The notes under the pieces: model-generated
Database searches by the model: none
Told to the model about the DNA's origin: nothing
The model's input: the letters and a program-made list of their open reading frames with translations, nothing else
NCBI GenBank assembly: GCA_973895155.1
Contig: OZ316896.1
Location: 4,241,595 to 4,305,594, forward strand
Reading direction: 5' to 3'
Source of the DNA: Marsupella aquatica
Taxonomy: Eukaryota; Plantae; Marchantiophyta
Length of the DNA stretch: 64,000 nt
Shown here: piece after piece, positions 16,408-63,683 of the stretch
Numbering within the stretch: position 1 is the stretch's first letter
Layout: the number at the start of each line of letters is the position of its first letter
Made by a program: the position numbers and the translations under genes

Positions 16408-19400
16408 ATGGCTAGATTTGGAGGAGTGAAGTTTGAGGTGGAGAAGTATGATGGTCGTACTGATTACTTGCTCTAGGAGAAGCAAGTGAAGGGTGTCCTT
16501 CGGGCCATGGCCTTAGCTCATCTGCTTTCTTCGTGAAAGCAGTATGATGGAGATGAGGAGATTTCTATGAAGCAGTGGAGACAGAAGCAGGTGATTGCTG
16601 TCAATGCAATGATGCTATATCTCAAGCCGCACATCATTAAGCAGCTGGATGATTATGCGGATTGCGCGTCACTGTTCAAGGCTCTAAGAGAGAAGTACTA
16701 TCGGGAAGATGCGTCACACCGGTTGTACAAGAAGTCTCTCTTGATGAGCCTTAGGCTCAAGGAAGGGAGCAAGTTGCAGGATCACTTGGATGAGTTTGAC
16801 AGTCTAGCGGTGGATTTGTCAAACCTGGATAAAGGAGTTGAAGATGAGGATAAGGCCTTGCTTCTGCTAAGCTCCTTACCGCCGTCATATCAGGGCTTGA
16901 AACAAGTGCTCTTGTATAGAGATTTGAAGTCCATTTCGTATAATGAGGTGGTGAGCTCTTTACTGTCTGATGATGCTCAGAAGAAGCTGGGTCAATCACA
17001 AACAGCATCTTCTTCTAGCACTGCGCTCTATGCGAATAGGGGAAGAGCAGCGCAACGCACGAATGGGCAGAACAGGTTTAGATCTACATCACAGGGGAGA
17101 TCTAAATCCAGAGGGAAATCGCAAGAGAGGAAGCCTCTTGCATGTTGGAATTGTGGCAAGCCTGGCCACATGAAAAGGGATTGTCGAGTAAAGATCCCTA
17201 CTGCCTCTGCTAACGTGGCATCGAGCCCGCATGAGGTAGATTTACTCGATGATGATGACATATTGTGATGTCAAGGTTATGCTCTCAACGTAGTGTCAAA
17301 TCTAGGTAGTGATGACTGGATTCTAGATAGTACATGTACTTTTCACATTTGCTCTAGGAGAGATTTTTTCAGTTCTTACACGATTTCCAACGGGTCAATG
17401 TTGATGGGAAATGGAATCCCATGTCAAGTTGTTGGACTTGGATCTGTTAGATTTCAGATGTTTGATGGTGCTGTGAGAACGTTGAAAAATGTGAGACATT
17501 CCCAGCATGATGAAAAATCTCATTTCACTTGGAGTTTTAGAAGCAAATGGTCATCAGTGGAGTTCTGCTAATGGTGTTCTTCAGGTTTCAATTGGTACTA
17601 AAGTTGTATTGAAGGGAAAAAGACATAGCAATCTATACATTTTGGAGGGCAGTGTAGTTTGTGATGAAGCCAATGTAACCTTATCTCATGAGGAGACGAC
17701 CCGGCTGTGGCACTTCCGTTTGGGTCACATGAGTGAAAAAGGTTTGGCTATTCTTCAGAAAAATAGGATTACTTTCTAATTTGCAATCTTTAAGTTGGAA
17801 TTTTGTAAGCACTGTGTGCTTGGGAAGCAGCACAGGAAACCCTTCGGAGTTGGAACTCACACTAGCAAGGAGGTACTTGAGTATGTACACAATGATGTGT
17901 GGGGTCCAGCCCCTACTCCCTCACATTCTGGACGGTTATACTATGTCACTTTCATAGACGATTACTCAAGGTATGTGTGGATATACTTTCTACATAGTAA
18001 GTCTGATGTTTTTGCCACTTTTAAGGAGTGGAAAGCCCAAGTTGAGAATTAGACTGGTAATAAGGTGAGATATCTTTGATCGGATAACGGCAGTGAATAC
18101 AGTTCCGGGGAATTTGGAACGTATCGTAAGGAGCAGGGAATTAACCGTCATCTCACAACAAGTTATACTCCTCAGCAGAATGGTGTTTCTGAGAGACTCA
18201 ACCGAACACTATTGGACCGCTTGAGGAGTATGTTGAGTCAATCATGCTTACCACATGAGTTTTGGGCTGAAGCTGTCAACACTGCAACTTATTTGGTAAA
18301 TTTTTCTCCATCCAGTTCTATTGGATTCAAGACGCCATATGAAATGAGGTACGGACGTCCAGCAGATTACTCACATCTCAGGATTTTTGGATGTGATGCT
18401 TATGTGCTTACACCTTCCCAGCTTCGATCCAAGCTGGAGTCCAAGTCGAAGAAGTGCATTTTCCTTGGTTATCAGAAGGGTGTAAAGGGTATAGGTTATG
18501 GGATCCAGTAACCTGTAAACTAATTGTCAGTAGAGGTTTGTACTTTAATGAATCCAGATCATCAAAGGAGGAGGAGAGTTCTCAAGACTCCCATACTGAC
18601 AAGGGAAAATCTCTCATCCCGGACCGGGTTGAGGGGGAGTTTAGTCATGATGCTGTTCATGACAAGGAAGATGGAGAAGCTCCGGGCTTGGAGCTGGTTC
18701 CTGTGATGGAACAAGAGGAGCAGATTGTTGTTGGGGTATTTCAAATTCAGTCAGCAGCAGCAGCAGATCAGCCTGAGTCATCTACTAGAAGAACTTCTAG
18801 CCGTTCTACTAGAGTTCCTACCAGGTATGGTCAATGGGCAGACTCATCTAAGCTAGATGATATTGATATTGCACCGATGATGATGATATGGCTTTGATCT
18901 TGGAAGAAGAAGAGTCTTCTTCGTACAATAAGGCTTGTGCTTTAAAGCAGAAGCATAAGTGGAATGCAGCAATGCAGAGGGAGCTGCAATCTTTGAGTGA
19001 CAACAAGACGTGGGAGCTGGTGGAGCTTCCAAGAGGTTAGCAAGTGGTGGACAGCAAGTGGATTTACAAGTTGAAGGACAGTCCTTCAGAGGGTGGAGAC
19101 AAGATCTACAAGGCAAGGCTTGTTGCCAAGGGATTCACTCACGAGAAAAGAGTGGATTATAATGAGGTCTTTTCACCGGTGGCTAAGTATTCCACAATTT
19201 GGATCTTGTGTCAGCTTGTTGTGTTTTTTGGTCTGGTGATGGATCAGATGAATGTTGTTACTACTTTTCTCTATGGCAACTTGGAAGAGTTGATCTTCAT
19301 GAGACAGCCACTAGGCTTTATGAAGAAGGGCCAAAAGAACTTAGTTTGCAGATTGCTCAAGTCCTTGTATGGATTGAAGCAGTCTCCCAGACAGTGGAAC

Positions 19401-20480
19401 AAGCGTTTTGATGATTTCATGTTTGCTCCCGGTTTTACAAGGATGGTGTATGATCCTTGTGTGTATATAAAATCAGTCAAGAATGATGTATTTGGTTTCA
19501 TCATTCTGGTTATCTATGTGGATGACATGCTGATTGTGGCTAAAGATCAATCTGAAGTTGACAGTCTCAAGGCAAAATTGAGTGTTGAATTCAAGATGAA
19601 GGATCTTGGTAAGGCCAAGAGGATCTTAGGGATGGAGATTTTTAGGAACTCTGAGACTGGATAGTTGTGCTTGAGTCAAGGCCAGTATGCGAGAAAAGTA
19701 CTTGCACGATTCAACATGGAGAACTGTAAGTCAGTGAGTATTCCTTTAGCTTCATATTTCAAGTTATCATCGGCTTTCTCTCATACGGATGCTGTGGAGA
19801 AAGGTCTGATGGCTAAGATTCCTTATGAGAAGGCAGTAGGTAGTCTGATGTATTTGATGACTTGTACTAGGCCTGACTTGGCCCTAGCGATGGGCAAGGT
19901 TAGCAGATTCATGTCAAATCGAGGGAAGGTACATTGGGAAGCTGTGAAGTGGATTCTCAGGTATCTGAAGGGAACACAAGACTATGGATTACTAGTTGAT
20001 GCCAGATCAGATAGAACGTTAGTTGGCTATGTAGATTCTGACTATGGAGATTTGGATACAAGGAGGTCTACAACTGGGTTTGTTTTTACTCTTGGAGGAG
20101 GATGTATCAGTTGGAAATCTACCTTGCAAAAGTGTATATCTCAGTCTACTACAGAAGCAGAGTATGTTACAACAACAGAAGCAGCAAAGGAAGCAATTTG
20201 GTTGGACAAGTTGATCGCGGAGATGGGTTTAGAGCATGGCAAAATGACTCTAAACTATGATAGTCAGAGTGTTCTTCACTTGGCTGCTAACCAGGTGATG
20301 GATAGCAGGTTGAAGCACATTGATATCAGGTACCATTTTATCAGGCAAGCAGTGTCTGATAAAACTTTTGAGCTAGTCAAGATTGATGGAAAGCTCAATC
20401 CCGCTGATGCCTTTACCAAAGTGATTCCTTTGGAAAGTTTCTCAAGACACCGTGCTACTTTGCAGGTTTTGCAGTTGTAG
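16408..20480 (+). pseudogene. copia gag-pol polyprotein disrupted by stops and frameshifts
   Basis: KFEVEKYDG gag start, CWNCGKPGHMKRDC knuckle, WILDST protease, LWHFRLGHMS and YVTFIDDYSR integrase, YKARLVAKG and YVDDML RT, YVDSD and KHIDIRYHF RNase H. Confidence 0.95.
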
Positions 20481-33800: not shown

Positions 33801-36800
33801 CCCGGAGCACACCTTCTCCTTTCTGACCACGAGGTCACAAGACGGTACTCATTAGCGGAGGTGAACCCTTCCCACTGCGTCTGAACCACCCGGGGATAGG
33901 AAAAAGGGGACACTACCTCTTTTCCCTTATCCACCCCCGAATGGTGCGTATGCCACCAGATCAGTATAAAAGGCTTTCGTCCTATGAGTTATTCCACGGG
34001 ACGAAGACGTGAGGTGGTGCGTAGGGGTTAATTTCCAGCTAGACTCCTTGACTCACGTCACCATTGGGGCTCTTCATCTTTACTCTTATCGTAGGCGAGA
34101 CACCTAGTCATTAAGAACAATTGAGCTCGTCCACTCTTGACGCTGGTCCGGATAGACTACAATAGAGGGGAAAACCTCCTCCTGTTGTCACTATTGTGAG
34201 CATCCGAACCTGACTTCCCCAACGACATTCTCTACTGTAAATTCAATAAAGACTGACTTATTAGAATGGGAAAAGAACATTACACACCAACGCGATTATC
34301 CTTGCAAGAATGTGTACCATATAACTGAGCAATGCTCTCCCCCCTTTGCCCATGACAGGCCAGGGGTTTAAATACTTTACAATCTATGCTAAGAATGGGG
34401 TAATGGCCACCATTCTTCTACGAAGCGATGTGCTTCCCTAACCTAATCCTATCCACCGCTCTTTCACTCCTCTGGCACAACAGGCGGTCACCTTATTTCT
34501 CTTTCGTGGGCGGCCTCCCACGCGGCTACCTCTAGATCCCTTGCTGCCACTGCCGTAATTCGGCGGCGAGTCCAACGCTATCATTGGAGCTCATTCCGCT
34601 GCCTCAACCATCGTTCCTCCCGTTCCCCTGGCGTCTCACCCGCGACCACACACCAATTGTGGTATTCTTTGTAAGTGTTAGGACCCCATTCATCCTCAAG
34701 CTCAATCTTGTTGTCCATGGTGTCGGGATTGGGCTGGTATACCATGAGGTATGCCCGAGTTGACGCTGGTGGTCCTCTGCATCTAATGATGGGGTCCTCC
34801 CCCTTCAAGAACTTGGCGCTTATTAACAAATTGTACATCCGCGCGGCTGCTGGCCCCGCCCGGCAAAATAGCTTCCACATGATCATCCCTTTACACTTCA
34901 TCTCGCCATTAAGATCCACGTCAACTTTGCCTGCTTGTCCGGATCAATCCACTACCTCAATTAGAGAGCGCGCAAAACAGTACCATCGGAAGTAGCGGGT
35001 GTCTACAATCGAACGCCCGAAAATATATCGATTTGTAAGGGCATTTATCCACCGTCGGAGTTAAGCCAAAAGACTTAATGGTGGATCGGCCTTGTGCTGG
35101 GGCAGTCGCATCCTAACCCGGGGATCATGCTGCCATATTGAATGATATACAGGTATAGGGTTGGTCTTGATGTGTAGACCAAACCCGTCATCGTCCACAA
35201 TCTCCCGAAAGAATTGGTGTGGTGTCCAGAAGATTGCAGGTCCAAAGTAATTTCCTAATCTATAATTATGTACACTTGCCTCTAACCATCTAATTACATT
35301 CTCCGTAGGGGTCACCCTTTCCCAAAAGGATGTCTTCTCCCAAACACCCAGACTCAAATCAACTGGATCAAAGGGAAGCTCGTCGGTTCGGATAGTGTCT
35401 CCCACACAAGCCACTGCAGCTGGATCTCTACCTAGTGAATAAAAATGAGTCATGGCAAGATGACTGAATTGGGGTAGGGCAGGGAGGTCTACAAAGCTCA
35501 TCCACTCATTGGTTACTATAAGATGGGAGGTGTAGTAAGGATTAAAAATCATACTCGTCCTATTTCTCTCTTCGTTGTGCCATCCGGCCGTTTGGAGAAA
35601 AGTAACTAGGCAGGGCAGAGTATACTTCCCACAGTTGGTATGGATTTCTCTTGCCGCCCAAGACTTCATCACTACTTCTCCTAAATCAAAGACTTTTCTA
35701 TGTACTGCTAAACTATAGAACCAATGGAGTTTCCACGCCGGACAGTCGGGATACGTAGTATCCGCATCTGCCATGAGGGCCACATAATGGGGGTGGCCAG
35801 CGTGCTCCCACTCCAGTTTGGACAGCAAGATTTGTGTGACTCTGTTGTTGGCCCTTCCTCCCAATCTAAAATATAAGTCTGTGGGTTGGGTGAACCCAAT
35901 GGCTCCCGACCATTTGAAGAATGGAGGCATAATCTGATCCGGACTGGGATGTTGTACCAAAATCCAATCCCAATCGTCCGGACGAATGGCCCTCTTGTTA
36001 ATCCTTGCTGTAGCCAAAATAACACGAAGGGTTTCCAACCCCATAGCTTCATCAACTTCAATAGCATTTTGAGATGCTATCTTTTGCTCAGTGAATAATT
36101 TCCACGAGTTTACACTCACCTTCTTGAGTTGTTCCAGCCTCCTCTTGTGCACTGAATCTGCCAGTGCATCCTTCAATAACTTAGCTGCCGTGGCAGCCTC
36201 ATGCGGCAGGCTCTGCACTTATAGGTCCCAAGCCTCGTAAGTGTCCGTCGAAATCCGAACCACCTTATTGCATTGCTGGATGAGCTCCTTACTTGCTACT
36301 TCCTGTAGCATCTCTTCCTCTCCTTCTCCCTGCTTTCTCCTTCTTCTTCTAACGCGGCAACGTATGCCTGCTTCTCCTCCAATTGTCCTTGTAGCTCATG
36401 ATTGACTCTCCTTACTTCTTGGAGCTTCTCTTCACACTCCAAAGCCCCCAGTTTGGCTGACGCCTCTTTGTCTACGAGCTCTTCCATTCTTTTCCCATGC
36501 GCAGTCAGCTGGTCGGACAGCCGGAGTGCCAATTGTTCTCCTTCCCCTACTCTCTGCTCCAACTCTTCAATTACCCTTTGCAGCTCATCGGCTTTCAGCT
36601 GGGACACAGAATTGCACTTTGCATGCTGGGTGGTTACCTCCTTTAACTCCTCTTTGGCGGTCGACAAGAGGTGACTCCATTCTTCCTCCTTGTCAGCCAG
36701 CAGCTCCTGCAGCTTCTTTCTATCCTTCTGGGCCTTTCCTAACTCGACCTTTAGGGCCTGTGAGCCAACCTTCTCCGTCCGGACCGCCTCCCGGGTCTGC

Positions 36801-39800
36801 TGCAGGGCTGTGGTTGCTTCCTCATTTTTCTCCCTTGCTTTGTCTAGCAATCCCTCTGAGTCCTCCAGCTGTTTCAATGCAAGCTTGTTAGATTCAGACT
36901 TCTTATGTACCTTTATGAGGAGTCGCTCAACCTTCTCTTCTGCTACCCTCAGCCTCTCCATGTCCCGAATCTTGCCCTCCGATTCCAAGATTGCTATCCT
37001 CACCATTGCCTTGCTCTCCTTCAAATCCCTCAACTAGTAATGTAAATCCCTGGTGTTGGGGATTGGCTTCCCTATGAACGCCAGACGTTGGGCGGGAGTC
37101 CTCAACTCTGCCAGATTGGTGGTATCCCAAAGTTTGGACAGCGTGGGTTGTTGGAAGGTGGCATGCCTCCCTTTTTCTTCTTCTTCTTTGTCTTCATTTT
37201 CCTCCGGGAGGGTTACTGCCCTCCGTTTCCTCTTGAGGCTCCTTCGACATTGCTCGGCCTACTCACTCAGGTTTCGTCAGGATTCTGCTCCTCCCTCACT
37301 CTCTGCATCCGAGTTTTGAGGTGCTTCGCCCTCCTCTTCCTCCTCGTCAGTCTCAAAATCCTCTTCATTGTATTCCGGTGGATCCACATTAACATTAGCT
37401 GTGGATCCCAACTCCGCCCTTACTGGTACTATCTCCTGGGCTTCTTCTTGATCTTCTGACTCCGACTCTCTTGAGTCTGAATTGTCCGGCGGAGCTCTAC
37501 TGACTGTCTCCAGGATCTCAAAACATTGTGTACTACAACTCCTAGTTGATACGCTAATAGTGACGGGAACTTCGGACAGCCCTTTGCGTCGATCAACGGA
37601 TACACTCGCCTTCCATAGCTGAAGCGGATGGAGGGATCCCACGAATAGGGCCCTTGCGATGAGAATTCCTGGTAGTGTGGCATGATGGTACCCGCTCTTA
37701 ACCATCACCCACTTGGTGCAAAACTCGATGAAGTTGCAGTACTCCTTCTGCTGGATGGCGTCGTACTGTATATTTCCTCGACTTATCCGGACCTCTGCCT
37801 GTTGCAAGAAGCTTGCTACGCCTGCTTCCTCGAGGGGGTCTACTTGGTACGTGAGAGGCAGCCGTCCTACCGTGGGAAGATCGAACATTGCGCACAACTT
37901 TTCCTTGGAATGGATTTTTTATAAATTTTAATACCGTGAAACCCCACGGATAGGGGGGGACAACAAAGGCCAATGCAGCCAGAACCTAACAACACAGCAG
38001 GGGCAACAGTCCGGGGCCAACACACCCCAGCAGCCCCACACCCCCAATAGGGCCCCTGGGAGCCCAACATTGCGCACAACTTTTGGTTGGAGAAAGTATA
38101 AGTCTTTCCCCGGTACATAATAAACACCCCCTCGGGTGACACTGTTACCTTAGTGATTCGTGAACAGATTTCTCCTCCTTGAGAAGTTGATAGATAGCGA
38201 TCCATTCGGACCTCCGTAATGGAGTTGCGGATCTTCTCTTCGGCCGACAGGGCTCCCTTCTTGTTCTTGGCCGGGGGAACCTCTGCTCTTTGTGCTCCTG
38301 CCGCTTCCATTTTTGCTCGATGTAAGTGAGGAGTGAGTGGATAGTGCTGGTGATCACCAAGTGCTCTCGTAAGGGGGGGGGGGGGGGTGGTTTTTCGAGT
38401 GTTCTAATGTGTTGTGAGACGAAAAATAGCCCGCCTTCCTGCCTTAAGCTCAAATGTGGAGCCTCTTTGGTTTGCGGATGTTCGGAAGGGTGGGACGGTC
38501 GTTGTCTTGTTATCGTGAAGTGCCTCGGTCCAGCGGCTCAATTCTGACGATCCTAATCACGGCGTTATTCTGGTGGCGCTCATGATTGCCCCTTTACTCA
38601 TGACTTGGTAAAGGTATAGTACCTATCGTGGTTGTGTACGCAGCTTCCTCTTCCTTCGTTTGCCAGCGGTATCTTAAGTACATATTATGGTTATCCTAAC
38701 CGTATTAGGGTAATAATGGTGTTTTACTGAAAGAGAAATAAATGATGGGGTGATAAATTTTCTCATACTAACATTTATTTTTATTAGACTATGTTTATGA
38801 GTAGTGGCACACCCCCATCAGCTTTTTGTTGTTTGCATGTGGAACCTTCCTACTCCACAGGGCCACCAGATGAGTCAGCTGGACTTCCAAGTTAGAAAAC
38901 CAACATAACCTTTTTATCGAATTAGATTTTGCCCTAAATTCTCATTCAGTGAGGGCATTGAGTGGAAAAGTGATTTGGTGAGGCCAGCTGAGTGGAAAAT
39001 TTCAATGTGTCAAGTCTCTAGAGTGAAACAGAGATTCATCCAGGAAATTTTCCAAAAAGGAAAGGAAGCATTATCTTACTAATAAACTGCAAAGCTATTT
39101 TTGAGAGCTATTGTGTAGAGTGAAGTCTCTAGGCTGTAACTCTCAATAAATACAAAACAAAAAAGTAGAGTGGACAAACAACAAAGATAGAGCAAAAATG
39201 AACCAGAAATAATATACAATATCCTTTACTGCAGGATTATTTAGTGTCTTGGTCTCTAATGATGTTCAAGGACTTAGGAGGTGATAATCAAATTAGGGGT
39301 GGGGGTGAAAATGGGGATAGGGGTGGAGTAGTGCAGTGAGTATTCTGCTGGAAGTATTACTCTGTATTTGAAAATAGGGCTGCCTGTGAAGAGAGCAGAT
39401 GAATATGGGCCGCATGTGAAAAGAGTCAACGGATTACGCAGGCCATCTCTGACTAGGTGAACCGCTATCATCGAGTGTCAAGAGCTATGGTAAAATGGCC
39501 AGCTCTTTGTCAATTGCTTGGAGAAGTTTTGGTCAGCTATTTGGTATAATCCAATACATGACAAGTGCCCACATCCGGAACGGATTTACCACACCCTAAT
39601 TCTGATTGTTGGCTGATGTGCTGAGTGTTATTTCCTTCTACATGTATGAATATTGCGTTTTGATTTGCAATAGCATTTGGTATAATACATTACATGAGAA
39701 GTGCCCACATCCTGAACGGATTTTCCACACCCCAATAAATTTGATTGTTGGCTGATGTATTGAGTGTTATTTGCTTCTACAAGTATGAATAATGCTTTTC

Positions 39801-39888: not shown

Positions 39889-40689
39889 TTCTGACTTTTT
39901 CACACTTGTTTTTCGAATAAAGAATCCCTTCCGAGGTTAAAAAAAGACTCCCAGATCACACAGTGCATCGGGCGGTCTGGTGTCAGGCCGAACAGGTTTT
40001 GGCGGGAACTCTTATAGTGCCGTACAAAGACTGCAGACTGCCCTATGAAGGTGGCGAATGGGAAGGCTGCATGCATGCTTGCCCAGACTGTAGATGACTA
40101 GATGTGCCTTTCGTTCATGGGAAGTGACGACGAATGTGGAGAACACAAGTGGAAAACAAAGGGGCAGCCGGGCAGACCTGCATAGTGAATGAACCTGGGC
40201 CTCCGGGCAGACCTAGAGAGTGAAAGACGAAGGCAGCCGATAAGCCGGGCAGTCCTCAACAGTGAACGACAAACGAAGGGGGCAGCTGGGCAGCCACTAA
40301 GGCATCGCCTGCAGGCGTAGTCATCATGAATGCGGATACGGCCCCCCATGATGCCAAACCAGGTGTAGGTTGACCCTCGATGCCGAGCGGGCCCCTATGC
40401 GCTGCCCGCTTTTGAAGGAGTGTGACTAGACTGGGTGCCCGGAACAAGATATCTAAACCCTGACCCACCGACCTTCTTGGCGACAAGTGTCCTTCGTGAC
40501 GATGAAAATACTTTCACGACGCGTGGCGTTGGAATAAGCAGACAAATGTTTTGAGTCAGACAAAATATAATATGCACGGGTAAGTCCGAAACGGGCAGCT
40601 CTCCTTTCCTATTGATGATGGAGCGAACTCGCATAATGGTGCGGTCCAAGATAAGATACTTTGCGTGTCGTCCCCTTTTCATTTATGTG

Positions 40690-40930
40690 TATACTATACT
40701 ACTACAGAACAAAAATTGTCCAACGGGGAGACAAATGAGGAGACCCAATATAAAGTAAAATATACACACTTTTTATATACAAAGGGACCAAACAGAGTAC
40801 AAATGAACAAACAAAAGAGGGCCCAATATAAAGGGTAAACCAAGGGAAAAACTTTGAAAGGCCAAAGAGCCAAAAGAACCTGATAATTTGACACAGCAGT
40901 AAAACGAACTAAAGTCCCACTCGAGCATAA
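40690..40930 (-). mobile_element. 3'UTR fragment related to the CRE-like element at 46540-47777
   Basis: Shares AATATACACA..AAAGGG.CCAAACAGAGTACAAA.GAA.AA.CAAAAGAGG.CCCAA with ~46709-46777. Confidence 0.55.
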
Positions 40931-41778
40931 TTTATAAGGTCCAATATGGCAAATCTCCAATTTTGCAAATCTCATTTTGTGTGAAGGAGAAGATGCCATA
41001 AATATTCCCTATCTGATTTTACTGCATTTTTTTGAACCTTCACATCTCCTCAGATTTAAGGACGAGTCTTTAGATTCTTGCTAATGGGGCCTATTGCCAG
41101 GTGGAAAACTGGCTATTGGAGGAAAGAAAACCTAAAAAGCTTCACTAAAAGTGATGAAAACATTTAGCAGAGGTGGGATCTAGCAAATTTCCACCACTCA
41201 AAAATGCTGCCCTACTCACCAGTAAACTGCAAAGGCTCCTAAAGCTCAGGAGTGAATTACATAGGAGAGTCAAGAAGACAAATTTGTTTAGAAGCACTTT
41301 AAAACCAACAGCCTCGCCCCAGAGAATAGTGGATGTATGAGCCGTTTGTAGTGCAAGACACATCAGTTATCTAAAGAAGATACCTGACACAGAAGTTGGG
41401 AGATAAGGCCCTTGCCCTTCCCCTCTTCCTTTTGGAATTTGTTTGATTGTGTAGACGAGCATTTCTGATCAATCAGATGTATTATACTTAGTGATCCAAG
41501 TATACATTTATGGCTAACTTTATAGAGTGAAGTCATAGGCCTATACTTTTACCAACATTTTTCTGGGAAGTAAAATCCAAGTTGAAAAGTGCAATGTACT
41601 TAGGAAAGGTTGTAGTCAGAATAGGTTGCCTTCAAGATTGATAAAACTTGACTGACAATTAATTGAGACGAGTCCACTACAATTGATTCACAATTGATAA
41701 GAGCCGAGAAGACAACAAGGTACCAACAAGAAAAGAGAAAAAATGTTGTAGACGGGAACTGCAGTGAGTAAGGTGTAG

Positions 41779-41877
41779 GGTAACCCATCCCCAAGAGGGG
41801 GTAATGGGCTGTAATCCCCGAGGGCATTGAGCCCGAGGGGGTTACAGCCAATTACCCCCAAGTGGGGATGAGTTACC
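41779..41877 (+). repeat. 99-bp imperfect inverted repeat (hairpin)
   Basis: 47-nt arms with 39/47 Watson-Crick complementarity and a 5-nt loop ATTGA (41826-41830). Confidence 0.92.
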
Positions 41878-42039
41878 GAGCGTAAGCCCCAGAGTGAAAT
41901 TTTGAAAAATATTCTCACGTTTATCTTGGGCGCCAGAATGGGAAACGTCACGTGGGGATAGTATTTGACACACTTCCATTGTTCACACCGGACAGTTTTG
42001 TCATTATTTTGTTTAGATTTGCTTAGATTTGCGTACGCC

Positions 42040-43742
42040 ATGGAAATCTCGATGTCAGCAAAGAGGAGTCGTAGCTCAATAGATCAAAAAGCTGTGTCAC
42101 GATTTGCAGCAATTGATCCTGTGGAGGTACATAATGTGAGTATCGGAGGCCATCAAAAGAGTGCTAAGTCAGAGGCCTGGGCGGAGAAGTCGTTCAATGA
42201 CTGGAGGGTGCATAGGGGATTCAGCATCGATACTAGCCTTGCAGACCTTTCCGAATGTGAGCCGAAGTTGTTGGTCGACTTGCTCACAGAATTCATTTTA
42301 CAGGTGAGGAGACAAGATGGTAAGTTGTATCCAGCAACTACCATTCAGAATATGCTTCGAGCAATTAATCGTGTAATTAGAGGTCGTCAAGAGATGCGGG
42401 CAGTGGAGAGTGGCGAAGCATTTATTCCAATAGACATTTTCAAGGCCCCTATGTACATGAAGGTGAAGCTTGCTGGAGATGAAGCTGCTACACGAGCAAT
42501 ATTGGCAGGGATTGGAAAGGAAATCAAGAAGAGTGACATCCTTAGTCCTGCGGAGGAAGCCAAAATGCTGCGTCTCCCACAGAATCAAGCTACATCTCCG
42601 ATGGGGACCAACTTGAGATTTGCATGGTACTGTGTGAACCGGTTTCTTATTAGAGGCTCTGGTGAGCTAAGATTGGTGGCGCAAGGCGATTTAATACTCT
42701 CCAAGACGGCAGCAGGCGAGTATGTCAGATTCTCTCAAAGTCTCTCCAAGAACTGGAAAGCAAGTGTGCAGAGATGCTCAGCGGAGCACTTGAGGCCACC
42801 CGTAGATGTTTACATGAAAGATGTTATAGTCACGTACAAGGTTATGATGTCTAAATGGCCAACCTGGCTGCCCGACGAATTGAACGAGCCCCATCCATTG
42901 TTCTTGCAGCCTAAACGAACTTGGCGTTTTCAGGATCCTGTGTGGTACACCAATGAGCCCATGGGAAAGAATACTTTAGAGAAGGCAGCACAGATGATGA
43001 CAAAGGAAATGCCAGAACTGGAGGGCAAAAGTATTACCAATAAGTCAGGTCGAACCACTGCCATCACTCGACTTCTGGACGCAGGCACCCCAGCAGAGTT
43101 TGGCATTGAAATATCGGGGCATCATGATGTGAAATCTTTTAAAAAGTACGTATCTAGTTGTGTAGAGTACGCATTGTGCAATATTTGATAGAAGACTAAG
43201 AGTTGTTCCCGTTCTGGTCATTTATGCCTCGACTGTGTCCCTTTGATGTGCTTTCATTGTGCATTCTTTCATGTTTACAATCTGAGACTTCTTGTAGGTA
43301 CAATCGAGGTGACAAGGAGGTGAGAGAGAGAGAGCAATGCAGAGAATCGTTGGTGCAGAGATAGTTGGAGGAAAGCTCATGAAGTGGAGTGAGGCCCTGG
43401 ATCTAGAGATTAAACATCTTGAAGAGATTCAGATGCAAGAAGTATCAGCAATGGAGACGTCGCTAGCAATGTCGAATGGAAAGGAAACAATGCAAATTAT
43501 TTCCAAAAGAAGACGAGGACGATGCTAAGTTCTGGGGCTCTGATGAAGTTTAGACTCTCTTAGAGCATACTGAGATGAAAACAAAGAAAGTGGTTGTTGC
43601 TACTGCTTCGAGCTCTGAAGGCCACACTTTTCGGGATCTAACTAATTGTCCAATTACTATTATCAACATCACTGACCCCAACGCAGCCCTCAAATGCATA
43701 GGGAGTTTGAATTTCCATCTGAAGGAGAACGCTGCAGCCTGA
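42040..43742 (+). CDS. DUF3504/Crypton-type tyrosine recombinase; exon 1 42040-43145 intact, intron 43146-43297, exon 2 frameshifted
   Basis: Motifs YPATTIQNML, FLIRGSGELR, SKNW, LFLQP..WYTNEPMGKNTL, TNKSGRTTAITRL and SGHHDVKSFKK/Y. Intron is AA|GTACGT..TTGTAG|G. The tail motif is FRDLTNCPITIINI. Confidence 0.85.
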
Positions 43743-43940
43743 CCAGGATTTGATTGTTTGTTTATTTGATTCAAATTAGACGTAAGAGACGTAGATCCAA
43801 TTCGATTGACCAGGATTTGATTGTTTGTTTATTTGATTCAAATTAGATGTAAGAGACGTAGATACAATTCGACTGACCAGGATTTGATTGATTCTTTATT
43901 TGATTTAAATTAGACGTAAGAGACGTAGATCCAATTTGAC
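43740..43940. repeat. 67-bp tandem repeat, 3 copies
   Basis: TGACCAGGATTTGATTG.. starts at 43740, 43807 and 43874. Confidence 0.95.
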
Positions 43941-44394
43941 GTATAAAATAGATAGATAGCTTGATCTGATCAATCCAATTTAGATACAAGAGATGTGGAT
44001 TTGGACATGCGACAGAAATATAGCTTCATTTGATTTGATTAGAAGTAGATTGCATTGTTGTACGTACAGATTAATTGACATGATATTGAAACGGTTTATT
44101 TCATTGATCATTGTCAGGCTGCAAGTCCATGGATTGACTGTTTATCCTCATGTTTCATTCAATTTTGCATGGTCTCTCTCTTCTGGTGTTTGATTCAATT
44201 TAGACGTAGACTGCATTACTGTACAGAAATTGAATATTGTTTCGCTCCATGTTGAACATTACCTTAGTTTGTTCTCAGTTAGTTCTCAAAGCTCCAGGGT
44301 CGATGGTCTCTCTGTCCTCATCGACTTAATTCAGATATTGAACAAGTTTGAGTTACACTGCAACATGTGTGCGTAGCTTTTGTCAGTGTTTGCC

Positions 44395-44557
44395 ACTTGT
44401 GGTTGGCAGCCTCCGCTGCCAGGGTCCGTAGCTTACTATGTAAAAAAGTTACAATGTACTTTCAAAATTACTTGTGGTTGGCAGCGTCCGTTGCCATGGC
44501 GCGCTGCCAGGGTCCGTGGCTTACAATGTAAAAAAGTGAAAATGTACTTTCAAAATA
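44395..44557. repeat. two-copy subterminal direct repeat (~75-88 bp)
   Basis: ACTTGTGGTTGGCAGC..CGCTGCCAGGGTCCGT.GCTTAC.ATGTAAAAAAGT..AATGTACTTTCAAAAT at 44395 and 44470. Confidence 0.9.
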
Positions 44558-44698
44558 GGGAATCCCCAGGCCAGGCTAGCTCAGGGGTTCTGTGGCCCCA
44601 CCCGCGGGGTAATGCCTCATAACCCCTTGTAAAAACACAAAGACAAAAATTCAGGAGGGGTTAACGAAATCAGTTTCTCTGTTTTCATTCAGGTTACC

Positions 44699-44789
44699 TG
44701 TTGTGGACAATCTCTTATCAAAATATGGTCTCTTGATTCAGAATGGTTCATTCAAATGGTCATCTTTTGATAATAGATTGTCCACAACA
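44699..44789 (+). repeat. 91-nt fold-back (miRNA-precursor-like or miniature inverted-repeat element)
   Basis: Outer 25-nt arms are 24/25 complementary, and the stem extends inward with G-U pairs on the + strand. Confidence 0.8.
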
Positions 44790-45339
44790 TCAAGACTATA
44801 ATAGGCACTCCTCTTTGCTGGATTCAATCATAGGATTTGCAGGTGTTGAGTCTCTTTTGAAAAGGAAATTAGAAACTACATAATTCTGGAATGAGGAGTT
44901 TATAGGAACGATTAAAAGTGGCCATTGTCGAGTACTCAATTAGCACAAAAAATTCTCCTTACACCACTTTGTTGCCACCCACAAAATGCTGGAAGTTTGG
45001 AAACAATGAACAACACAGTCCTAGAAGGCCTAAACAATGCATGTTTCCGTTGCACAAAACCCCTGGAACAAGGCCGGGCCAAAAAGGCTAAAAGGCAAAA
45101 TGAAGAGAAAGCAGGAGAGAATGCCACTAGGCATTATACCTCAACGGAAGAAGCAATCTTTGCCACTAGGGGGAGAAAGAAATTGCAGTCATTGCCTCAC
45201 CCCCCTCTCGGTTGAAGATTGGAGGAACGCAAACAATTCAAGTCGGGAAGCAAGCGTTGTGGACAAGCAATGTCGACGTAATCACAGAAATCAATTTGCA
45301 GCGACTAAGTTTGTGACGGTGACGAGATTGTGACATCTC

Positions 45340-45830
45340 TTAATCGAGAAAGTGTTTCCAATGAGCCTACGATTAAATTTTTTTGTCAAGTTCCGTATGA
45401 GTTTTTGAATTTCTCTGCCTTTCCAATGAGTGTGACAATAAAAAAATTTGATCATGAGTTCTGGAATTCTTTTAGCTTTCCAACATTGAGTCCAACATTG
45501 ACAAATTTTATGTCAAATTTTGTCATTGTACTAAAAGAGATCATGAGGTTTTCAATCTCTCTAGCTTTCTAATGTGTGACATTGGGAGTACTCGTCAAGA
45601 ATTAGAGAGATCATGAGTATCTAAATTTCTCTAGCTTTCCAATGAATTTAACGTTGATAGATTTGGCCAAGTACTAAGGAGATGATGAGTTTCTAATTTT
45701 ACTCTAGCTTTCCAATGAGTGTGATATTGAGAGATTTTATCAAGACAGTATTAAAAAGGTCATGAATTTCTAGATCTTGAGCTTGATAGATTGACAGATT
45801 TCATCAAGTACTAAGGAGATTGATTATTTA
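45340..45830. repeat. degenerate ~60-85-bp tandem array, probably a DNA-transposon interior
   Basis: Recurrent (CTA)GCTTTCCAATGAG and GATCATGAG(T) motifs. Confidence 0.6.
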
Positions 45831-46539
45831 GTTTTATAATGTGGAGCCAAAGGGTTTCTAACTATGTACATTTGTATCGATTGGTTTTTTCAAACTTGCA
45901 AACAATTAAAATATACAAGCATTTTTATGTAAAACACTGATATATCATTGACAAACATCAAATTGGTAACTTTATTTTACTAAATGACATCTCTTCATTT
46001 GTATCATGTTGGTGTTTTTTATGATTAAAACTTACGGCATGGTGCCCCCAAAATTACGTTGCTTTTGCCACAAACATGAATGTGCGCTTTTGTTATTGTC
46101 AAAATAAGATCTTTCCTGTTTGTGGCTGGTTGTGCTGATGTGGCACAACCTCGTGGCAGGGAATTTTCAAGGGACCTCTCATGGGGGTAAGTAAACAATA
46201 CAAAGAACCTTTTAGCACCAAGTTTCAAGTTCAATCCCAAACCTATGTGCTCTAGTTTCAATGCTAGGTACCTATAGGTTATGCTCTAGAGGGTCTCAGG
46301 CGGGCAAGCTCAATTAAAGTGTTATGTGCCATAGGCTCTTTGTAGGAGTGTAGGAATTTCTATTAAAACAATACAGAGATATATACCAATGGGTGGTCTT
46401 GCACTTTCCCCTTTCCTCTAAACCACAAGAAACTACGTGTGAACCTCACCTAAGTGGAGCATCTCCATTGGCTTAGTGGCCAATGACCCTCAAACAATAG
46501 AAATAGAGGTGCATTAATGAGGATTGATATGGTGAAAGA

Positions 46540-47777
46540 AACTAACCAAACAGGGACACAATAACTAAAAGGTCAGGGACCCAACAAAGGGGGAAAAACA
46601 AGGAAAAAAATCCCAGGAAGACAAACGAGCCAAAAAGCCCAAGAAGTTACACAAAACTGCAAAGGAACTATTTTTGTGTGTGGGTTGGCTTAACCAGACT
46701 AACCTGTGAATATACACAAACGTTTTACAGAAAAGGGCCAAACAGAGTACAAAAGAATAACCAAAAGAGGTCCCAAGTGGGCAAAACCAAACGCAAAAGA
46801 AGTGAGTGAAAGGAAACCTCTAAGAACCAAGAAAGGGGAACTAAAACAACTGCAAATGGACCGAGGTCCTTATCATTCCTAGCTAGTGTGGCTAATAGCT
46901 AAAGGTCCACATCAAGTGTCAAAACTAAATCGGCAAGTGGGAATGAAATGTCCTCTAGGGGGGCTAGCCGCTGTGGAGGCACACTAGCACCCACTGTCAG
47001 AGATCAACGATGGATGGGCCGAGCTTGAGCACGCTATAAGGTGACTGAAATGCATTGGCAAAATTGCGTGGTCAAAACGTATAGCGGGGGTCTGGTGGGA
47101 CCCATCCGGCCATGAACATCCCGAGCAGCTTGTTGAAGAAGCCCGTCAAATTGTTGATGGAGATGCCCAAATATCTCAAGAGCAAGGGGGAGAAAGCTAT
47201 TAGATGAAGCTCGGGCAGCATATCTGGCCTCCTTTGTTGTTGCCGCTCGTGATGCCGCTGCCCCTGCCATTGTTGCCACTGACCCAATGATGTCTTGGCG
47301 CAATGGGTTTGCCACTACTACATCTGCCAAAGTACGTTGACCCTCATGGACCATGGTAAGATCCACCCGTAACCGCTGTGATGGAGGACCAGGTAACTCG
47401 AGCACCACCTCCCGCCGCATGCTAACCAAAGAGCCAGAGAGAACCTGAGCAGTCTCATCTCTCACAACATCGTGAACAAAAATGGTTTCGCCGCCCAAAC
47501 AGCACCAAAGAAGATGGACACCTGCATCACAAGGCTTCCCACAAGTGCAAGAGGGAGGTAAACCAGCAAGAAGTGGGTGGGGCAACCCCATACGAAGACG
47601 CATGGCTGTCAAGAACTCCGCTGAAGACATCCGCAAATGAGGAATGACTGGATTGGCCTGAAGCCAACCCCCCGCGCCCTTCCCTCCGGACGAAAGAAGT
47701 GGTTTGGGGACACATAGAGGCTCATAATTTGTCCAAGCCAGCACCCCGCAAAATTTGGGGAAAATGAGCAGGACCAA
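46540..47777 (-). mobile_element. 5'-truncated non-LTR retrotransposon with restriction-like endonuclease (CRE-like)
   Basis: ORF 47034-47777 has RLRMGLPHP, CTC..HLLWC zinc motif, HDVVRD, RVD, TLADV, KEARY and FLPLALEIFG, which are the CCHC plus PD-(D/E)xK RLE signatures. A T-rich 3'UTR follows on the minus strand. Confidence 0.8.
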
Positions 47778-50040
47778 AATGTGATAGTTTTTGTTTGTAG
47801 ACTATAGCCAGCACCCATGTTCTTGTGCTGGCTATAACTGGCATATAGATAGCATATTCTCCTCAACCAAGGTGACATTTGCCACCCTCATTCTCCTCCC
47901 AATCTCCATTTTACACCCACATCCCCAACTTTAGTTATACCCCAAGTCACTATCTAGAGACTTTACTCTAGACCATAGCCCTGAAGAGTATTTTTCTATC
48001 CTGATTATATACTTAGATAGCATTACTACACAAGTAATGTCATTTTAAAGTTTTTTTCAGTCTATGAATATAGTGCAGGGACATTGAATGTCCTCAACTC
48101 TCACATTAATTTTATCTTCCTAAAAGCACACTCAGGATATTAAAGAAAGTCACTGATACATCGACAGTCCAGATGTATATAGTTATGACTTGTTTAGAGG
48201 GCATTGTGGGATATAATGCCCCCAAAACCAGAGCTTATTCTCTAGTTTTGACAATGCTTGGGAAACAGGGCCTTATTACACTTAAAAGTCCTGAAAGATT
48301 TATCTTTTTACTAATTTAGTAAAGGTATGGGAGATTCTTCCTAAAGACATGATTCAAATCTTGACCGGGGCATTCTTGTTCAAGAATGCACTGAAAATAC
48401 AAATGTTAAAAATCTCCAAGGACATTAGGGATTGAGAAGCTTTTACAAAACATGATTGACAGTAATCACCATTGTTTTTGTTGCAAAAATAGCCAAATTG
48501 CACCTGAACAGTGGTGGTCAATTTTGGCCAAAATTAGTCAGGCTTTTTGTCTTAGATTAGCCAGTTTTTCACTTAGCCGCAGTCCCCATTAGCCAAATGG
48601 TTATCCTTATATCTAGGGAGATCTAAAGATCAGACATCAATCTAGTGAAATCAGGTGTGGAATATTCTTAGGATCTTCTGCTGGGCCACAACCGTGTGCC
48701 AAGGAGAAAAATGTGACTAAAAACTTAAAACCCCAGTGAAACAGAAAAGAAACCTTAAAAGTTACCCTGACATAATGCCATCTGCTCGGATTACTCTCAC
48801 CGCAGCAAGGAGTGTGCTTTTCATCGACAACCCAAATTGTATGTTTGTCTGCCAAGATAAGTGGTGGAAAGTTCTCAAAATTGTCACATGCGGGATCATA
48901 TGAACGCCTTAGTAAGAACCTGTGTTCTCACTGGATACTGAAGTCTGTCATGGTTTAAAAGGGAGAGAAGACAAAGGGTGAGGGCAACCTGTTCTTGCGG
49001 TCATGCTCCAAACACATGGCATAGTCTAAACAAAGCCTGAGAAGTAGTCAAGGTTTTCTTCGGCAACTCATTCTGTGACACCAAACATGGCATGCAAATT
49101 TTTTCAATCTAATCCTTATCAGGCTGTGGCCAGGCCTTATAGTGTTACGAGATAATAACTGAGAGAATATACTAGGTGGACTTCAATAGACTCACTAGAA
49201 AAATGGCTTAACACCATGAACTAAGCAAAGCAAGAGACTTTTTTTTATAGCAAAGCAAGAATTTTGTGGGGGTTCCCGACAGAATTGCCTATCATATTGA
49301 ACAGAGCATCAATCCATCAGAATTGAATATCATACCAAACAGAGTATAGATCCATTGCTGCAAATCTTGTAGGCATTCCCTGATTTTCTGGCATAGGCAT
49401 CCCTCCCTTCACTTCCAATGAACATGCCAGGTGCAGGTTCCAATACAACATCTACCTTAATGTCTATTGTAGTTGGTAATTCAGGTTTTCAGCTGTCCTC
49501 CCACTTACGAATGATTTCTTCTATCGCCCCTTTCTTTGGCCTCTCCTTAATAAGTATTAAGGGGTTCAAATTTCCCTACATTGTGAGAAAGGGTATGAAT
49601 ATTTGGGGGAGGCAATAATTGTGGTCAGAAATCTAACAGGCAGCCTTCTAGTACTGAGACAGCTATGAAGTCATAGACTCATATCACAGCTATTCGTCAA
49701 GGCCAAGGAGGAAAGGGATGCCTAGATTGAGGTTTCCTTGTCACTCCAAATGGATGCTAATAAATCCCATTCCAAACAAACACCTAAAACTGTCAACCCA
49801 CAAGTGAACCATCTGTGCGTGGACCAGCAAAGAGGTCTTCAAATTGAGTTTAAGCAAACTAAAGGCAAAAGTATATAAAAAAGAAGAAGGAAAAAGTAGA
49901 GAGAGAAAACGTTTTGGCTGGAAAAAGTTTAAATGACCAGCAAAATCTGGCCACTACGTACGGTAGCTCTGTATGCATGCTTGAGAATTTACACTTGTGA
50001 GAATGTACTCTTAATCACATTTTTTTTAGTGGGAAAATCT

Positions 50041-60714: not shown

Positions 60715-61060
60715 TGGTAGGATTTACTCTTAGGTCTAGAGTACATGATTGTACCAGAGTTAGGGCTAACCTTAGTCGCAGACTAGGTTAGGTTAGTCAT
60801 GTTGTGCACACACTATACCCAAGTGGTGTTTTCTTGGAGAGTCTTAACTCATAATCATTGTTACAGAGCCAGTTGAGAGATAGGGAGAGTTTGTGTTATG
60901 GATGCTTGGTATGGCCAGTCGGCCTAGAGTGCAGCAAAGTTTTTGTGTGTTCCCGTGGATGTAGCCTTATGTGGAGGTGAACCACGTATCTCTCTGTGTT
61001 GACACTTGTGCATTGGATGGTTCATGGGCTTCTCATTGTGATTGTCGTCTATGTTCAACA
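60715..61060 (+). repeat. LTR related to the 14379 copia LTR, preceded by a PPT
   Basis: AGTCAAGGGGGAGAT then TG..TCAACA (346 bp). The 3' two-thirds closely match the copia LTR (GTTGAGAGATAGGGAGAG, GGAGGTGAACCACGTATCTCT). Confidence 0.85.
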
Positions 61061-61305
61061 CACATCCTTGAAGATCACAAAAGGACGTTTGAAGATCACA
61101 TTGATGGTTTGAACGACTTGGTTGTTGACTTGAAGAATCTGGGGGAGAATTTGAGTGATGAGAGACACATTTTTCACTTGCTTAGCTCTTTGCCATCTTT
61201 GCTTCATACACCGTCACAAATGCTGCTTCATCATGATAGAAAGATGATCACTTACAACCAGACAATAAGTGCTTTGTTGATTGATGCCTTACAACAAAAG
61301 TTAAC

Positions 61306-63683
61306 TGTCACTTGCCTATCCAATGATTAATACGTGCACACCGTACTTTTCTTTGCTTAAACCGTTGGTATCATATTACGGGGTCGTGGAGGGACGCTAT
61401 TTGGAGGATTTCCACACCTAAGGATGAGTATGTTTGATTCCGCTCCTGGAAGTGTACTTTTTGATCAAGTCTACCGACTGGTCTCTCCATTTTTGATCAA
61501 GTCCAAGGGACTGGCCCTACCATCTACAACTCATGCCCCCCCGGGTGAGTGCTCTCACCACCCCCCCTCTCATTGGGCAAGCACACAAACGTTTACAATA
61601 AGATTTGAACACTAGTGACACGGGCAAATGTTTCCACAATGAAACCGACCACATGCACTAGGGGAGGAAAACAAACAACACAAGTAACAACAAGTGACAC
61701 ACAAAATATTGGAACCTCAAGCCAAATCCATATCTCTTGGTGTTTCCCGTAACACATGCAAGGAAACCCCGGCCTCCTATCGTCTACCCAACTCCTGCCT
61801 CCCGGGGACAAGTGCTATGTTCTCCACCTCACTACTCTGGCTTGAACTTCTCCTAATCGATGCGCTACTCACAAAAGCTACTCAAAATCATCAGGGCACT
61901 ATGTTGAGTTCCCCCCTCACTACTCCGGGGCTCTTCCCCCTAAATACTGGAAACCAACACACCAAAGCACCCCTCACGGGGTCACAAAGATGGCGGCTAC
62001 CCTAGTGGCGCCGCTAAAACCATTCACGAGAAATCCCTAACCTAAAACATGCGGCACACACATGATCCTAAAGCCCTAATCTAACTATGGGACCGACGAT
62101 GCCTTCGACAACGACACAATCTCGCTCCGTGAACCGCAAAAATGCAAGGGACCCCATAATTGCCGAAACTAGGTGACACTTTGAGTGCACCTCTGAGCTC
62201 ACCCCTGGGTAGCCCTGCTCCTCCTGATCATGAATCACCAAACCGCTCCCGAAATGGATGTCACCTATGAATCACCAAACCACTCCACTAAACAAGGACT
62301 CACTTGAGTCCACCACCTCCTATCCTATCTATCTACCCTGCCTATCAGTCTCAATCCTCCTGATCGCCACCACCGGTCCGTTGTAAAAGGAGGGGGCCCC
62401 TATAATTGTTGAAACTAAAATTTTCTCAGAATTCACTTCTGAAAACATATTTGAGGAGCTCTCCTCTTCCTGATCACGTCTCTATAAACGGTGCACAAAA
62501 CGGAGGCCAAACGACCAAGATATGATCGTTTAACTTTTCATGGGGCATCGTCTCCCTCCGTTTCGTCCGTACAACACCAGGGGGCCCCGGCTTTGCAAAA
62601 CACGGATCACGAGTTCTCCCTATGTGGTGCTACCTCCTCCTTCCCTTGCAAAGCCGGGACCTCCTGCCGTATGGATGTCCATACGGCCTCAAAACCCTGG
62701 TATTCTCAAAAAATGCGATTTGTTGTATCTTCCCCGTCTTAGCTCCGTTTTGGCCGTGTGACACATCGTTGGATTTAGCTCGAGCTCTTTCCAACAAGCC
62801 TGTAGACTCCTGATTTGAGATGGTCGAAAATCTGATGTTCGTACAACCAAGGTCCGTACACACGTTGAAAGCAAGCACAAGAGGGAAAGGGTTTAGGGTT
62901 TAGGGTTTAGGTATGGGTGGAAACCCCACAAGTGAGAATAGAGAAAAAGGGAAGGAAGAAAGTGTGAGGGCCCCTTCTACCGATGTAATCTTCTATGAAG
63001 TGCCCCTTCTACGGTGTGGTTCTTGTATGGAGTGCCCCTCTACGGAGTGGGGAAGGGAAAGAGAGCAAAAACCATGTGAGGACCACACAAAGAGTGAAGG
63101 GGAACACAAGTGTGGGAACCCCTTCCTTCTAAGGGCCCTCCAAGATCACTACTCCAAGATCACTACTCCAAGATTGTCTAGTTTGTTATTTTACGGGCGT
63201 TAAGGTCCCTCAAGATGTCACTGTTTGATATAGACCTAGAATCAACTAGAGAACCTCAGTTTCGCATGGGGCTCATTGAGGGCTTGAAAATGAATCCAAA
63301 CATGACTATGTTTGGAATAGTACTAGCGCAGCAACATCTATTTTAAGTTTTAACATTTTCTATATTTTGGTTATTCTTCCCGTTTTGCGCCTTACGTGGA
63401 GCCTCCGATCAGCCCCCACCCCTCCAAGATGCCCACACCTTGGCTCCAAGTCCTTGGGCTGCCTTGTGGCCTCCTTGTACCCCCTCAATGGTTCCCTTGT
63501 CATCCATCACCGCCCGGCACTGCTCTCAACTCCGGCCTCCGGTTGTCGCATCCATTTATTAGAACTAACAAAAATAAAAAATTTGAAAATCCAAACACTT
63601 TTACTACATCTACTTGTCTTTCTACTTATATACGCAATTATAAGTCATCACTAAGTTACTACCGGGTTTGGGGCCCTGTCACA
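61306..63683 (-). mobile_element. 2378-bp solo LTR, probably Ty3/gypsy
   Basis: TGTCAC..GTCACA ends, perfect TTAAC TSD (61301-61305 and 63684-63688), no coding domains. Orientation is inferred. Confidence 0.85.
62888..62911 (+). repeat. interstitial plant telomere-type repeat (TTTAGGG ~3x) within the LTR
   Basis: AGGGTTTAGGGTTTAGGGTTTAGG. Confidence 0.9.

Follow-up and report, generated by a model that had tools for sequence, protein, structure and literature searches.

Cryptons, in the operational sense of PMC13465315, are eukaryotic DNA transposons which code for a tyrosine recombinase (YR), and the reports consulted place them in fungi, animals, stramenopiles and green algae. The account in PMC3212892 presents the Goodwin model and gives Crypton direct repeats of 4-6 bp. 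In Chlamydomonas, clean excision of a Crypton is described as leaving one copy of the target, and a gain of copies is also described (PMC9977147). According to a 2026 review, the Crypton mechanism is without experimental proof to date (PMC13565253). Circles are described as demonstrated for Starships, experimentally for Hephaestus (10.64898/2026.09.21.753150). The locus considered here lies in a stretch of 64,000 nucleotides from the liverwort Marsupella aquatica (assembly GCA_973895155.1, contig OZ316896.1, positions 4,241,595 to 4,305,594), hereafter the window. Positions 41772-44661 of the window quite probably represent a DNA transposon that was inserted between TAA repeats, possesses a Cre-fold recombinase as its sole gene and likely moves like Cryptons.

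The boundaries of the element are based on contigs from five public runs (X1-X5, from three studies and with two organism labels) that were aligned to the region.

41769-41771, + strand: left TAA direct repeat, the target and predicted crossover core, 2893 bp before the right TAA
41772-44661, + strand: transposon, 2890 bp between the TAA repeats, with ends accurate to about 4 bp
44662-44664, + strand: right TAA direct repeat, placed by the contig joint and the TAA spacing

An empty homologous site is represented by one contig each in X3 and X4, in which position 41767 is joined to 44661 and 2893 bp (41768-44660) are skipped. The depth at this joint is 15 in X3 and 60 in X4, and the contigs are about 90-93% identical to the flanks in the window. 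The spacing from the TAA at 41769-41771 to that at 44662-44664 is 2893 bp, the same as the length skipped in the empty allele. At this one locus, in one study, the empty target has one TAA and the filled site has two. The insertion (or an excision) is later than the split from the empty homologue. Within 41400-45080, X2 contains the filled allele only, X3 and X4 contain both the filled and the diverged empty types, and X5 contains diverged flank pieces only. This pattern is compatible with a hybrid, with an allopolyploid or with material that was mixed under a single species label.

A preliminary description of this DNA had placed the ends at TTGTA, which would rebuild a seamless empty site and form the junction of a circle. 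While TTGTA is present at 41746 and 44627, it is not the terminus. It occurs 214 times in the window, 99 and 115 times on the two strands, and positions 41746-41768 are single-copy flank that is present also in the empty allele, so the pair is attributed to chance. Both the rebuilt empty site and the circle junction are refuted by the observed empty allele, which lacks 41768-44660 and has TAA as its repeat. On the right, positions 44632-44661 are part of the element. Beyond 44624 the loose letters of the contigs agree at 0.66-0.72 and resemble 44627-44657, and therefore the right end extends past TTGTA. Termini at TTGTA and an alternative pair of TGTA repeats at 41774 and 44628 with a palindromic junction were both rejected, since neither is compatible with the empty allele and with the consensus of the right end.

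The ends of the element occur in many copies. At the bin of 41769, the depth jumps from 0.9, 38, 64 and 0.2 to 2601, 11194, 20746 and 505 in X2, X3, X4 and X5, respectively. In the same runs 37, 59, 58 and 28 contigs have loose ends before 41773, with a flank agreement of 0.36-0.38. A dispersed multi-copy family with non-autonomous derivatives is thus represented by 28-59 contigs per run that start at 41773 and have unrelated flanks. The consensus of these unrelated left flanks ends in TAA followed by T in X3, X4 and X5 and TTA followed by T in X2, preceded by a purine-rich stretch; the left-flank consensus of X1 is out of register with those of X2-X5. Eight of the 15 listed joints link 41816-41885 to 44549-44566, and an additional joint, 41940 to 44468, was found in X2 and X3. 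These end-to-end joints are short derivatives with both element ends. The summed depth relative to the core is about 500-600 for the left end and 100-150 for the right end, ratios that do not represent copy numbers because the hairpin arms may count twice. A head-to-tail joint of 44662 to 41772, with three letters between, is present in X3 and X4 and represents a tandem rather than a free circle, since it is found at chromosomal depth.

In contrast to the ends, the coding core has single-copy depth, with 0-1 differences in about 1.9 kb among the pieces listed for X2, X3 and X4. In X2-X5 there are further coding copies, such as one on a 9.5-kb contig in X2, that are about 80-85% identical, and eight of the 14 listed changes in them are at third codon positions. 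No close coding sister of the element was seen in the contigs of the runs. A metagenome scan with the end pattern gave no matches, and a scan with the recombinase protein alignment gave 271 pattern matches, none of which was confirmed.

The gene and the non-coding part behind it are arranged as follows.

42040-43145, + strand: exon 1 of the tyrosine recombinase, intact, with R205, K237, K335, R338 and H361
43146-43297, + strand: predicted intron of 152 nt, GT..AG, directly before the catalytic Tyr codon, with a frame behind it that matches homologues
43298-43742, + strand: exon 2 with the catalytic Tyr, a conserved C-terminal helix and a variable tail, broken, from frame comparison with homologues
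43740-43940, + strand: 67-bp tandem repeat, three copies, in the 3' non-coding part

The uninterrupted first exon of 368 codons given in the preliminary description was borne out, with a frame that begins at ATG 42040 and a probable exon 1 of 42040-43145, or 368 codons plus 2 nt. In Pfam, it matches DUF3504 with an E of 2.5e-6 and a score of 28.1 bits, below the cut-off of 29.7. Phage_integrase was matched with an E of 0.0065, and QRICH1 weakly. An AlphaFold model of exon 1, built from a 16-row alignment, had a mean predicted local distance difference test score (pLDDT) of 78.8. In a Foldseek search with this model the first 12 matches were Cre or Tre, the best with an E of 1.9e-8 and a template modelling (TM) score of 0.55, followed by QRICH1 at rank 13 and then by the Tn1549 integrase and Xer. 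The viral matches of the recombinase were phage integrases, and sequence searches of the PDB gave no genuine match. Based on the model, the sole gene of the element is predicted to encode a Cre-fold tyrosine recombinase.

The catalytic set R-K-[K]xxR-H-Y is kept, with K335 at the position of the His of most relatives. In a set of 17 plant-type plus His-type sequences, the conservation of R205, K237, R338 and Y370 is 90% or more. Where CryptonA and Glomhopper have the tetrad R-H-R-Y, the element has R205, K335, R338 and Y370. Lys in place of the tetrad His was found in the query and in 20 of the 59 full motifs among 150 matches. Type IB topoisomerases carry Lys at the position equivalent to the His of HxxR, and by this analogy activity of the Lys-type enzyme is plausible.

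The spliceosomal intron is likely because the frame downstream of it matches the C-terminal helix of homologues, with 43325-43510 aligning to residues 342-403 of P0001 (37%, E 7e-9). Splicing between GT 43146 and AG 43297 would join KK to YNRG... The frame from ATG 42040 stops at 43186-43188 if unspliced, and Y370 is present in this reading too. This is because GTAC opens both the intron and exon 2, so that the spliced and unspliced readings each give Lys-Tyr370 (43146-43301). Other Lys-type homologues read through the intron position, and the intron could be a recent gain. A family-wide intron at the Tyr was rejected, as none of the 20 Lys-type homologues with a full motif ends within 20 aa of the Tyr and all 20 extend at least 44 aa beyond it.

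The young age proposed for the insertion is unsupported. About ten codons past the Tyr, the frame of exon 2 is shifted within an (AG)n run (near 43320-43335); it is probably shifted again near 43500, and there is a stop at 43551-43553. With its frameshifted exon 2, and with no close coding sister observed, the element is probably an impaired copy and likely not a very young one. As first described, the element contains no reverse transcriptase (RT), long terminal repeats or terminal inverted repeats, based on the frame scan and a comparison of its ends. The sole RT match among 104 frames of the window belongs to a Copia element at 19041-19661. The ends at 41772 and 44661 are not complementary, and palindromes are subterminal only. 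Pfam gave no match to GCR1_C in exon 1 or in two frames of exon 2, no match to DUF3435 in the recombinase and no remnant of another transposase in the frames of the element.

The relatives of the recombinase point to a lineage of seed-free plants. A phmmer search of 1.84 billion representatives gave 908 matches with E values of at most 0.001. The named organisms among 30 matches that were looked up are all seed-free plants, namely Riccia sorocarpa, R. fluitans, Calypogeia, Marchantia, Ceratodon, Physcomitrium, Diphasiastrum and Adiantum. None of the 30 was assigned to a seed plant, in a look-up that is no survey. The Riccia homologues are 39-44% identical, and one UniRef name labels a Marchantia homologue 'DUF3504 domain-containing'. 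In a word-indexed protein search, none of 3649 candidates was confirmed with a single protein query and three of 7995 with an alignment query.

A quick tree of 72 rows was built from the query and 71 of the 195 proteins that cover at least 200 query residues, with cluster duplicates and over-long envelopes excluded and with a midpoint root. The query and all 17 named plant rows fall in a clade of 30 rows on a branch of 1.2, with a Shimodaira-Hasegawa-like approximate likelihood ratio test (SH-aLRT) value of 100, apart from 42 unnamed DUF3504-type rows. Outside the plant clade, all 14 rows tested score above the DUF3504 cut-off, as against one of 16 plant-side homologues; the score of Riccia P0002 is 31.7 bits. 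The nearest ESM Atlas clusters are cnidarian and mollusc DUF3504 proteins. The motif is N-K-S/T-x-R on the plant side and N-H-S-x-R in the others, and none of 35 homologues scanned has an RT domain. On sequence grounds, the element appears to belong to a transposon lineage that is spread over liverworts, mosses, clubmosses and ferns. Its placement among DNA transposons that have a tyrosine recombinase and no RT, in a land-plant lineage with affinity to the DUF3504 Cryptons, is close to what was first proposed and is supported by the fold, the homologues, the tree, the empty site and the multi-copy ends.

Some plant relatives are candidate domesticated copies. Marchantia P0018 and P0157 (Mp5g04240 of M. 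polymorpha, and M. paleacea) form one 90% cluster across two species and are without the second His. In a Diphasiastrum clade (P0041, P0048, P0120 and P0123, some unnamed) all catalytic residues are lost. Physcomitrium P0160 is a fusion with Coilin_N and has annotated isoforms.

When compared with described systems, the element is a Crypton in the operational sense given in PMC13465315, since the YR is its sole gene, RT and terminal inverted or long terminal repeats are absent, and it has a short direct repeat and a dispersed family with derivatives. The single YR gene and the lack of RT and terminal inverted repeats are shared with CryptonA, the animal DUF3504 Cryptons as described by Kojima and Jurka (2011; PMC3212892), and with the Glomhoppers of Glomeromycota as described in PMC13465315. 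Like CryptonA, as in the account of medaka, it has abundant non-autonomous derivatives, and like the Glomhoppers described it has an intron. It differs from both in its plant clade on a long branch, in the Lys for the His of HxxR and in its 99-nt terminal hairpin. The DUF3504 score of the plant element is at or under the cut-off, whereas the nearest non-plant relatives carry DUF3504 above it. It also possesses a TAA direct repeat, while terminal repeats are, in the account of PMC3212892, not found in the animal elements. Given Lys in the place of the tetrad His, a DUF3504 score short of its cut-off and a nesting within CryptonA that is not demonstrated, the element is not filed there.

With CryptonS and with CryptonF of fungi, oomycetes and Chlamydomonas (CryptonF-1_cRei, PMC9977147), as far as described, the element shares an end repeat that equals the target and remains in one copy at the empty site. 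In contrast to these groups, it is without GCR1_C, has a repeat of 3 bp instead of 5-6 bp and has a DUF3504-related enzyme. Starships, which have DUF3435 captains, are described as similarly YR-driven with microhomology at their ends, but the element has only 2.9 kb, no cargo and no DUF3435 match. The similarity to the Cre and QRICH1 structures is one of fold (Cre TM 0.55, E 2e-8; QRICH1 rank 13) at an identity of 13-14%, with no PDB match at the sequence level. Unlike DIRS, Ngaro and VIPER elements, it has neither RT nor RNase H.

The two ends of the element differ in structure.

41779-41877, + strand: left terminal hairpin, 99 nt, with 47-nt arms and a 5-nt loop, folding z -8.8 (+) and -8.7 (-)
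44468-44661, + strand: right end common to the short derivatives, from contig joints, with no significant hairpin (z 0.08 and -1.2)

The 47 positions of the hairpin comprise 39 Watson-Crick pairs, six purine-purine pairs, one G.T and one A.C, with no pyrimidine-pyrimidine pair, and a tandem GA/GA is present at 41820-41821/41835-41836. Under the scan used, the hairpin is unique of its kind within the window, and Rfam gave no matches. It contains two GGGGT(A/T)A-N7-T(A/T)A(C/T)CCC palindromes, and a third, GGGGTAA-N7-TAACCCC, lies at 44606-44626 in the right end. Judged by their sequence, these 7-N7-7 palindromes fit putative recombinase binding sites in ordinary duplex DNA. A contig in X3 and X4 links the right-end to the left-end palindrome (44624 to 41799), possibly by recombination between subterminal palindromes.

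It is very likely that the transposon is mobilised by a YR, and a route through a double-stranded circle is favoured with somewhat less confidence. The recombinase would bind the GGGGT(A/T)A palindromes close to each end, and strand exchange would occur at TAA. Recombination between the two TAA sites would then produce a DNA circle and restore a single TAA on excision. The circle would re-integrate at another TAA, with a preference for purine-rich targets similar to the right end of the element, and the recombinase would mobilise the short derivatives in trans.

The hairpin allows for a different chemistry, in which the folded top strand of the left end is what the recombinase recognises, in the way attC is read by integron integrases, and a single-stranded copy is moved replicatively. 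The z of -8.8 and the uniqueness of the hairpin are consistent with this, as is the rise of Crypton copy number described for Chlamydomonas lines (PMC9977147). All six non-wobble mismatches are purine-purine on the + strand, including the tandem GA/GA, and majority variants in other copies introduce on the same strand an A.G mismatch at 41809, in X2 with 72% of the depth, and a G.T wobble at 41855 (80%). However, the six mismatches form three clusters, and the chance p is about 0.25 by cluster and 0.03 by base. In the energy model both strands fold nearly alike (-41.6 and -40.1 kcal/mol). Moreover, the stem ends 8 bp short of the TAA crossover, unlike in attC, where the crossover is within the stem, the hairpin sits at the 5' end with a loop of 5 nt, and an inverted array of double-stranded binding sites also accounts for the palindrome. 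Transposition by a folded strand is for these reasons considered unlikely. Equally doubtful is a wider proposal built upon it, of an ancient undescribed Crypton-type lineage of seed-free plants whose Lys-for-His enzyme would recognise a G.A-mismatched folded hairpin, transpose as a single strand in the manner of integrons with a minimal TAA core, and also have been domesticated in parallel to ZMYM and QRICH1.

Other explanations concern the origin of the gene. A TAA or TTA duplication is typical of PIF/Harbinger elements, and the recombinase might be a gene captured by a non-autonomous element of this or another class, such as a hairpin-ended HUH element, that is moved by another transposase. 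Hairpins with short direct repeats typify HUH elements, Replitrons are described from the same plant groups (PMC10288648), and the recombinase is shown between these ends for a single copy. The lack of terminal inverted repeats at 41772 and 44661, the absence of any other transposase remnant, the completeness of the recombinase from ATG to tail with all catalytic positions filled, and the existence of related coding copies and of a family across seed-free plants make capture improbable. The single-copy depth and near identity of the core, the intact exon 1, the Tyr that is kept when unspliced and the relatives that look domesticated are features expected if the recombinase were a domesticated gene of the host, comparable in plants to ZMYM and QRICH1. 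Such a gene is very improbable and largely refuted by its absence from the homologous site; in addition, the ends are on many dispersed copies and exon 2 is broken. An Adiantum homologue model, P0194, is fused to a gag domain, which would agree with a YR that is part of a DIRS-like retrotransposon. This origin is scarcely credible for an insertion of 2.9 kb in total without RT or RNase H, with a spliceosomal-type intron in its gene and with no RT domain in the homologues scanned.

Several observations weigh against a transposon that moves like Cryptons. The repeat of 3 bp is below the 4-6 bp given for Cryptons in PMC3212892, the His of HxxR is replaced by Lys, and the recombinase is shown between these ends in one copy only. 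Contigs bridge the empty site in only two runs of a single study, with a shorter side of 42 letters, and the site represents a diverged homologue and not an allele of the same species. A flank piece in X5 begins exactly at 44661 without bridging, and the head-to-tail junction is one letter longer than a plain TAA crossover predicts. Finally, the tree is a quick one, midpoint-rooted and without named Crypton references.

No land-plant Crypton family was found in the literature searched, as far as the sources cover it (including PMC11630846, PMC3537659, PMC12130899, PMC11162782, PMC10288648, PMC13565253, PMC4455052 and PMC6681497), with Repbase, Dfam, supplements and subscription journals outside this scope. 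None of the papers found that mention both DUF3504 and plants concerns a plant element. Plant entries could be present in Additional file 1 of PMC3212892 and in the repeat tables of genome papers. With its exact ends, its target, its empty site and its short derivatives, the locus provides data that are usually missing, and these suffice as the basis of an excision assay in either Marchantia or Physcomitrium. The locus also points to repeats of a hidden class that largely escape Pfam in the genomes of bryophytes and ferns, to a changed active site and to DUF3504-like recombinases that plants may have domesticated.

Around the element, a 38-nt inverted repeat with a 15-nt spacer is present in the right flank at 44699-44789, 35 bp outside the element, in a region that a diverged flank contig covers too. 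Both flanks contain very high-copy repeats (40602-41003 and 45225-46200), with summed depths of up to thousands of times the core. A frame of 255 aa at 47034-47801 (- strand), also outside the element, has a CxC..H..xC motif and a D..D-type stretch and is presumably similar to the end of a non-LTR retrotransposon that carries the endonuclease; it has no Pfam match, and no RT frame was found upstream by eye. A cluster of long frames at 34581-38537 (- strand) encodes 385, 245, 213 and 178 aa, one of them coiled-coil-like, with no Pfam match. The Copia element is a broken LTR retrotransposon at 16045-20480 (+ strand) with gag, integrase and RT matches. Its closest named relatives are a Marchantia protein (72%) and Calypogeia (65-66%), while the named seed-plant rows listed reach at most 58%. 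A second gag fragment is located at 60965-61327.

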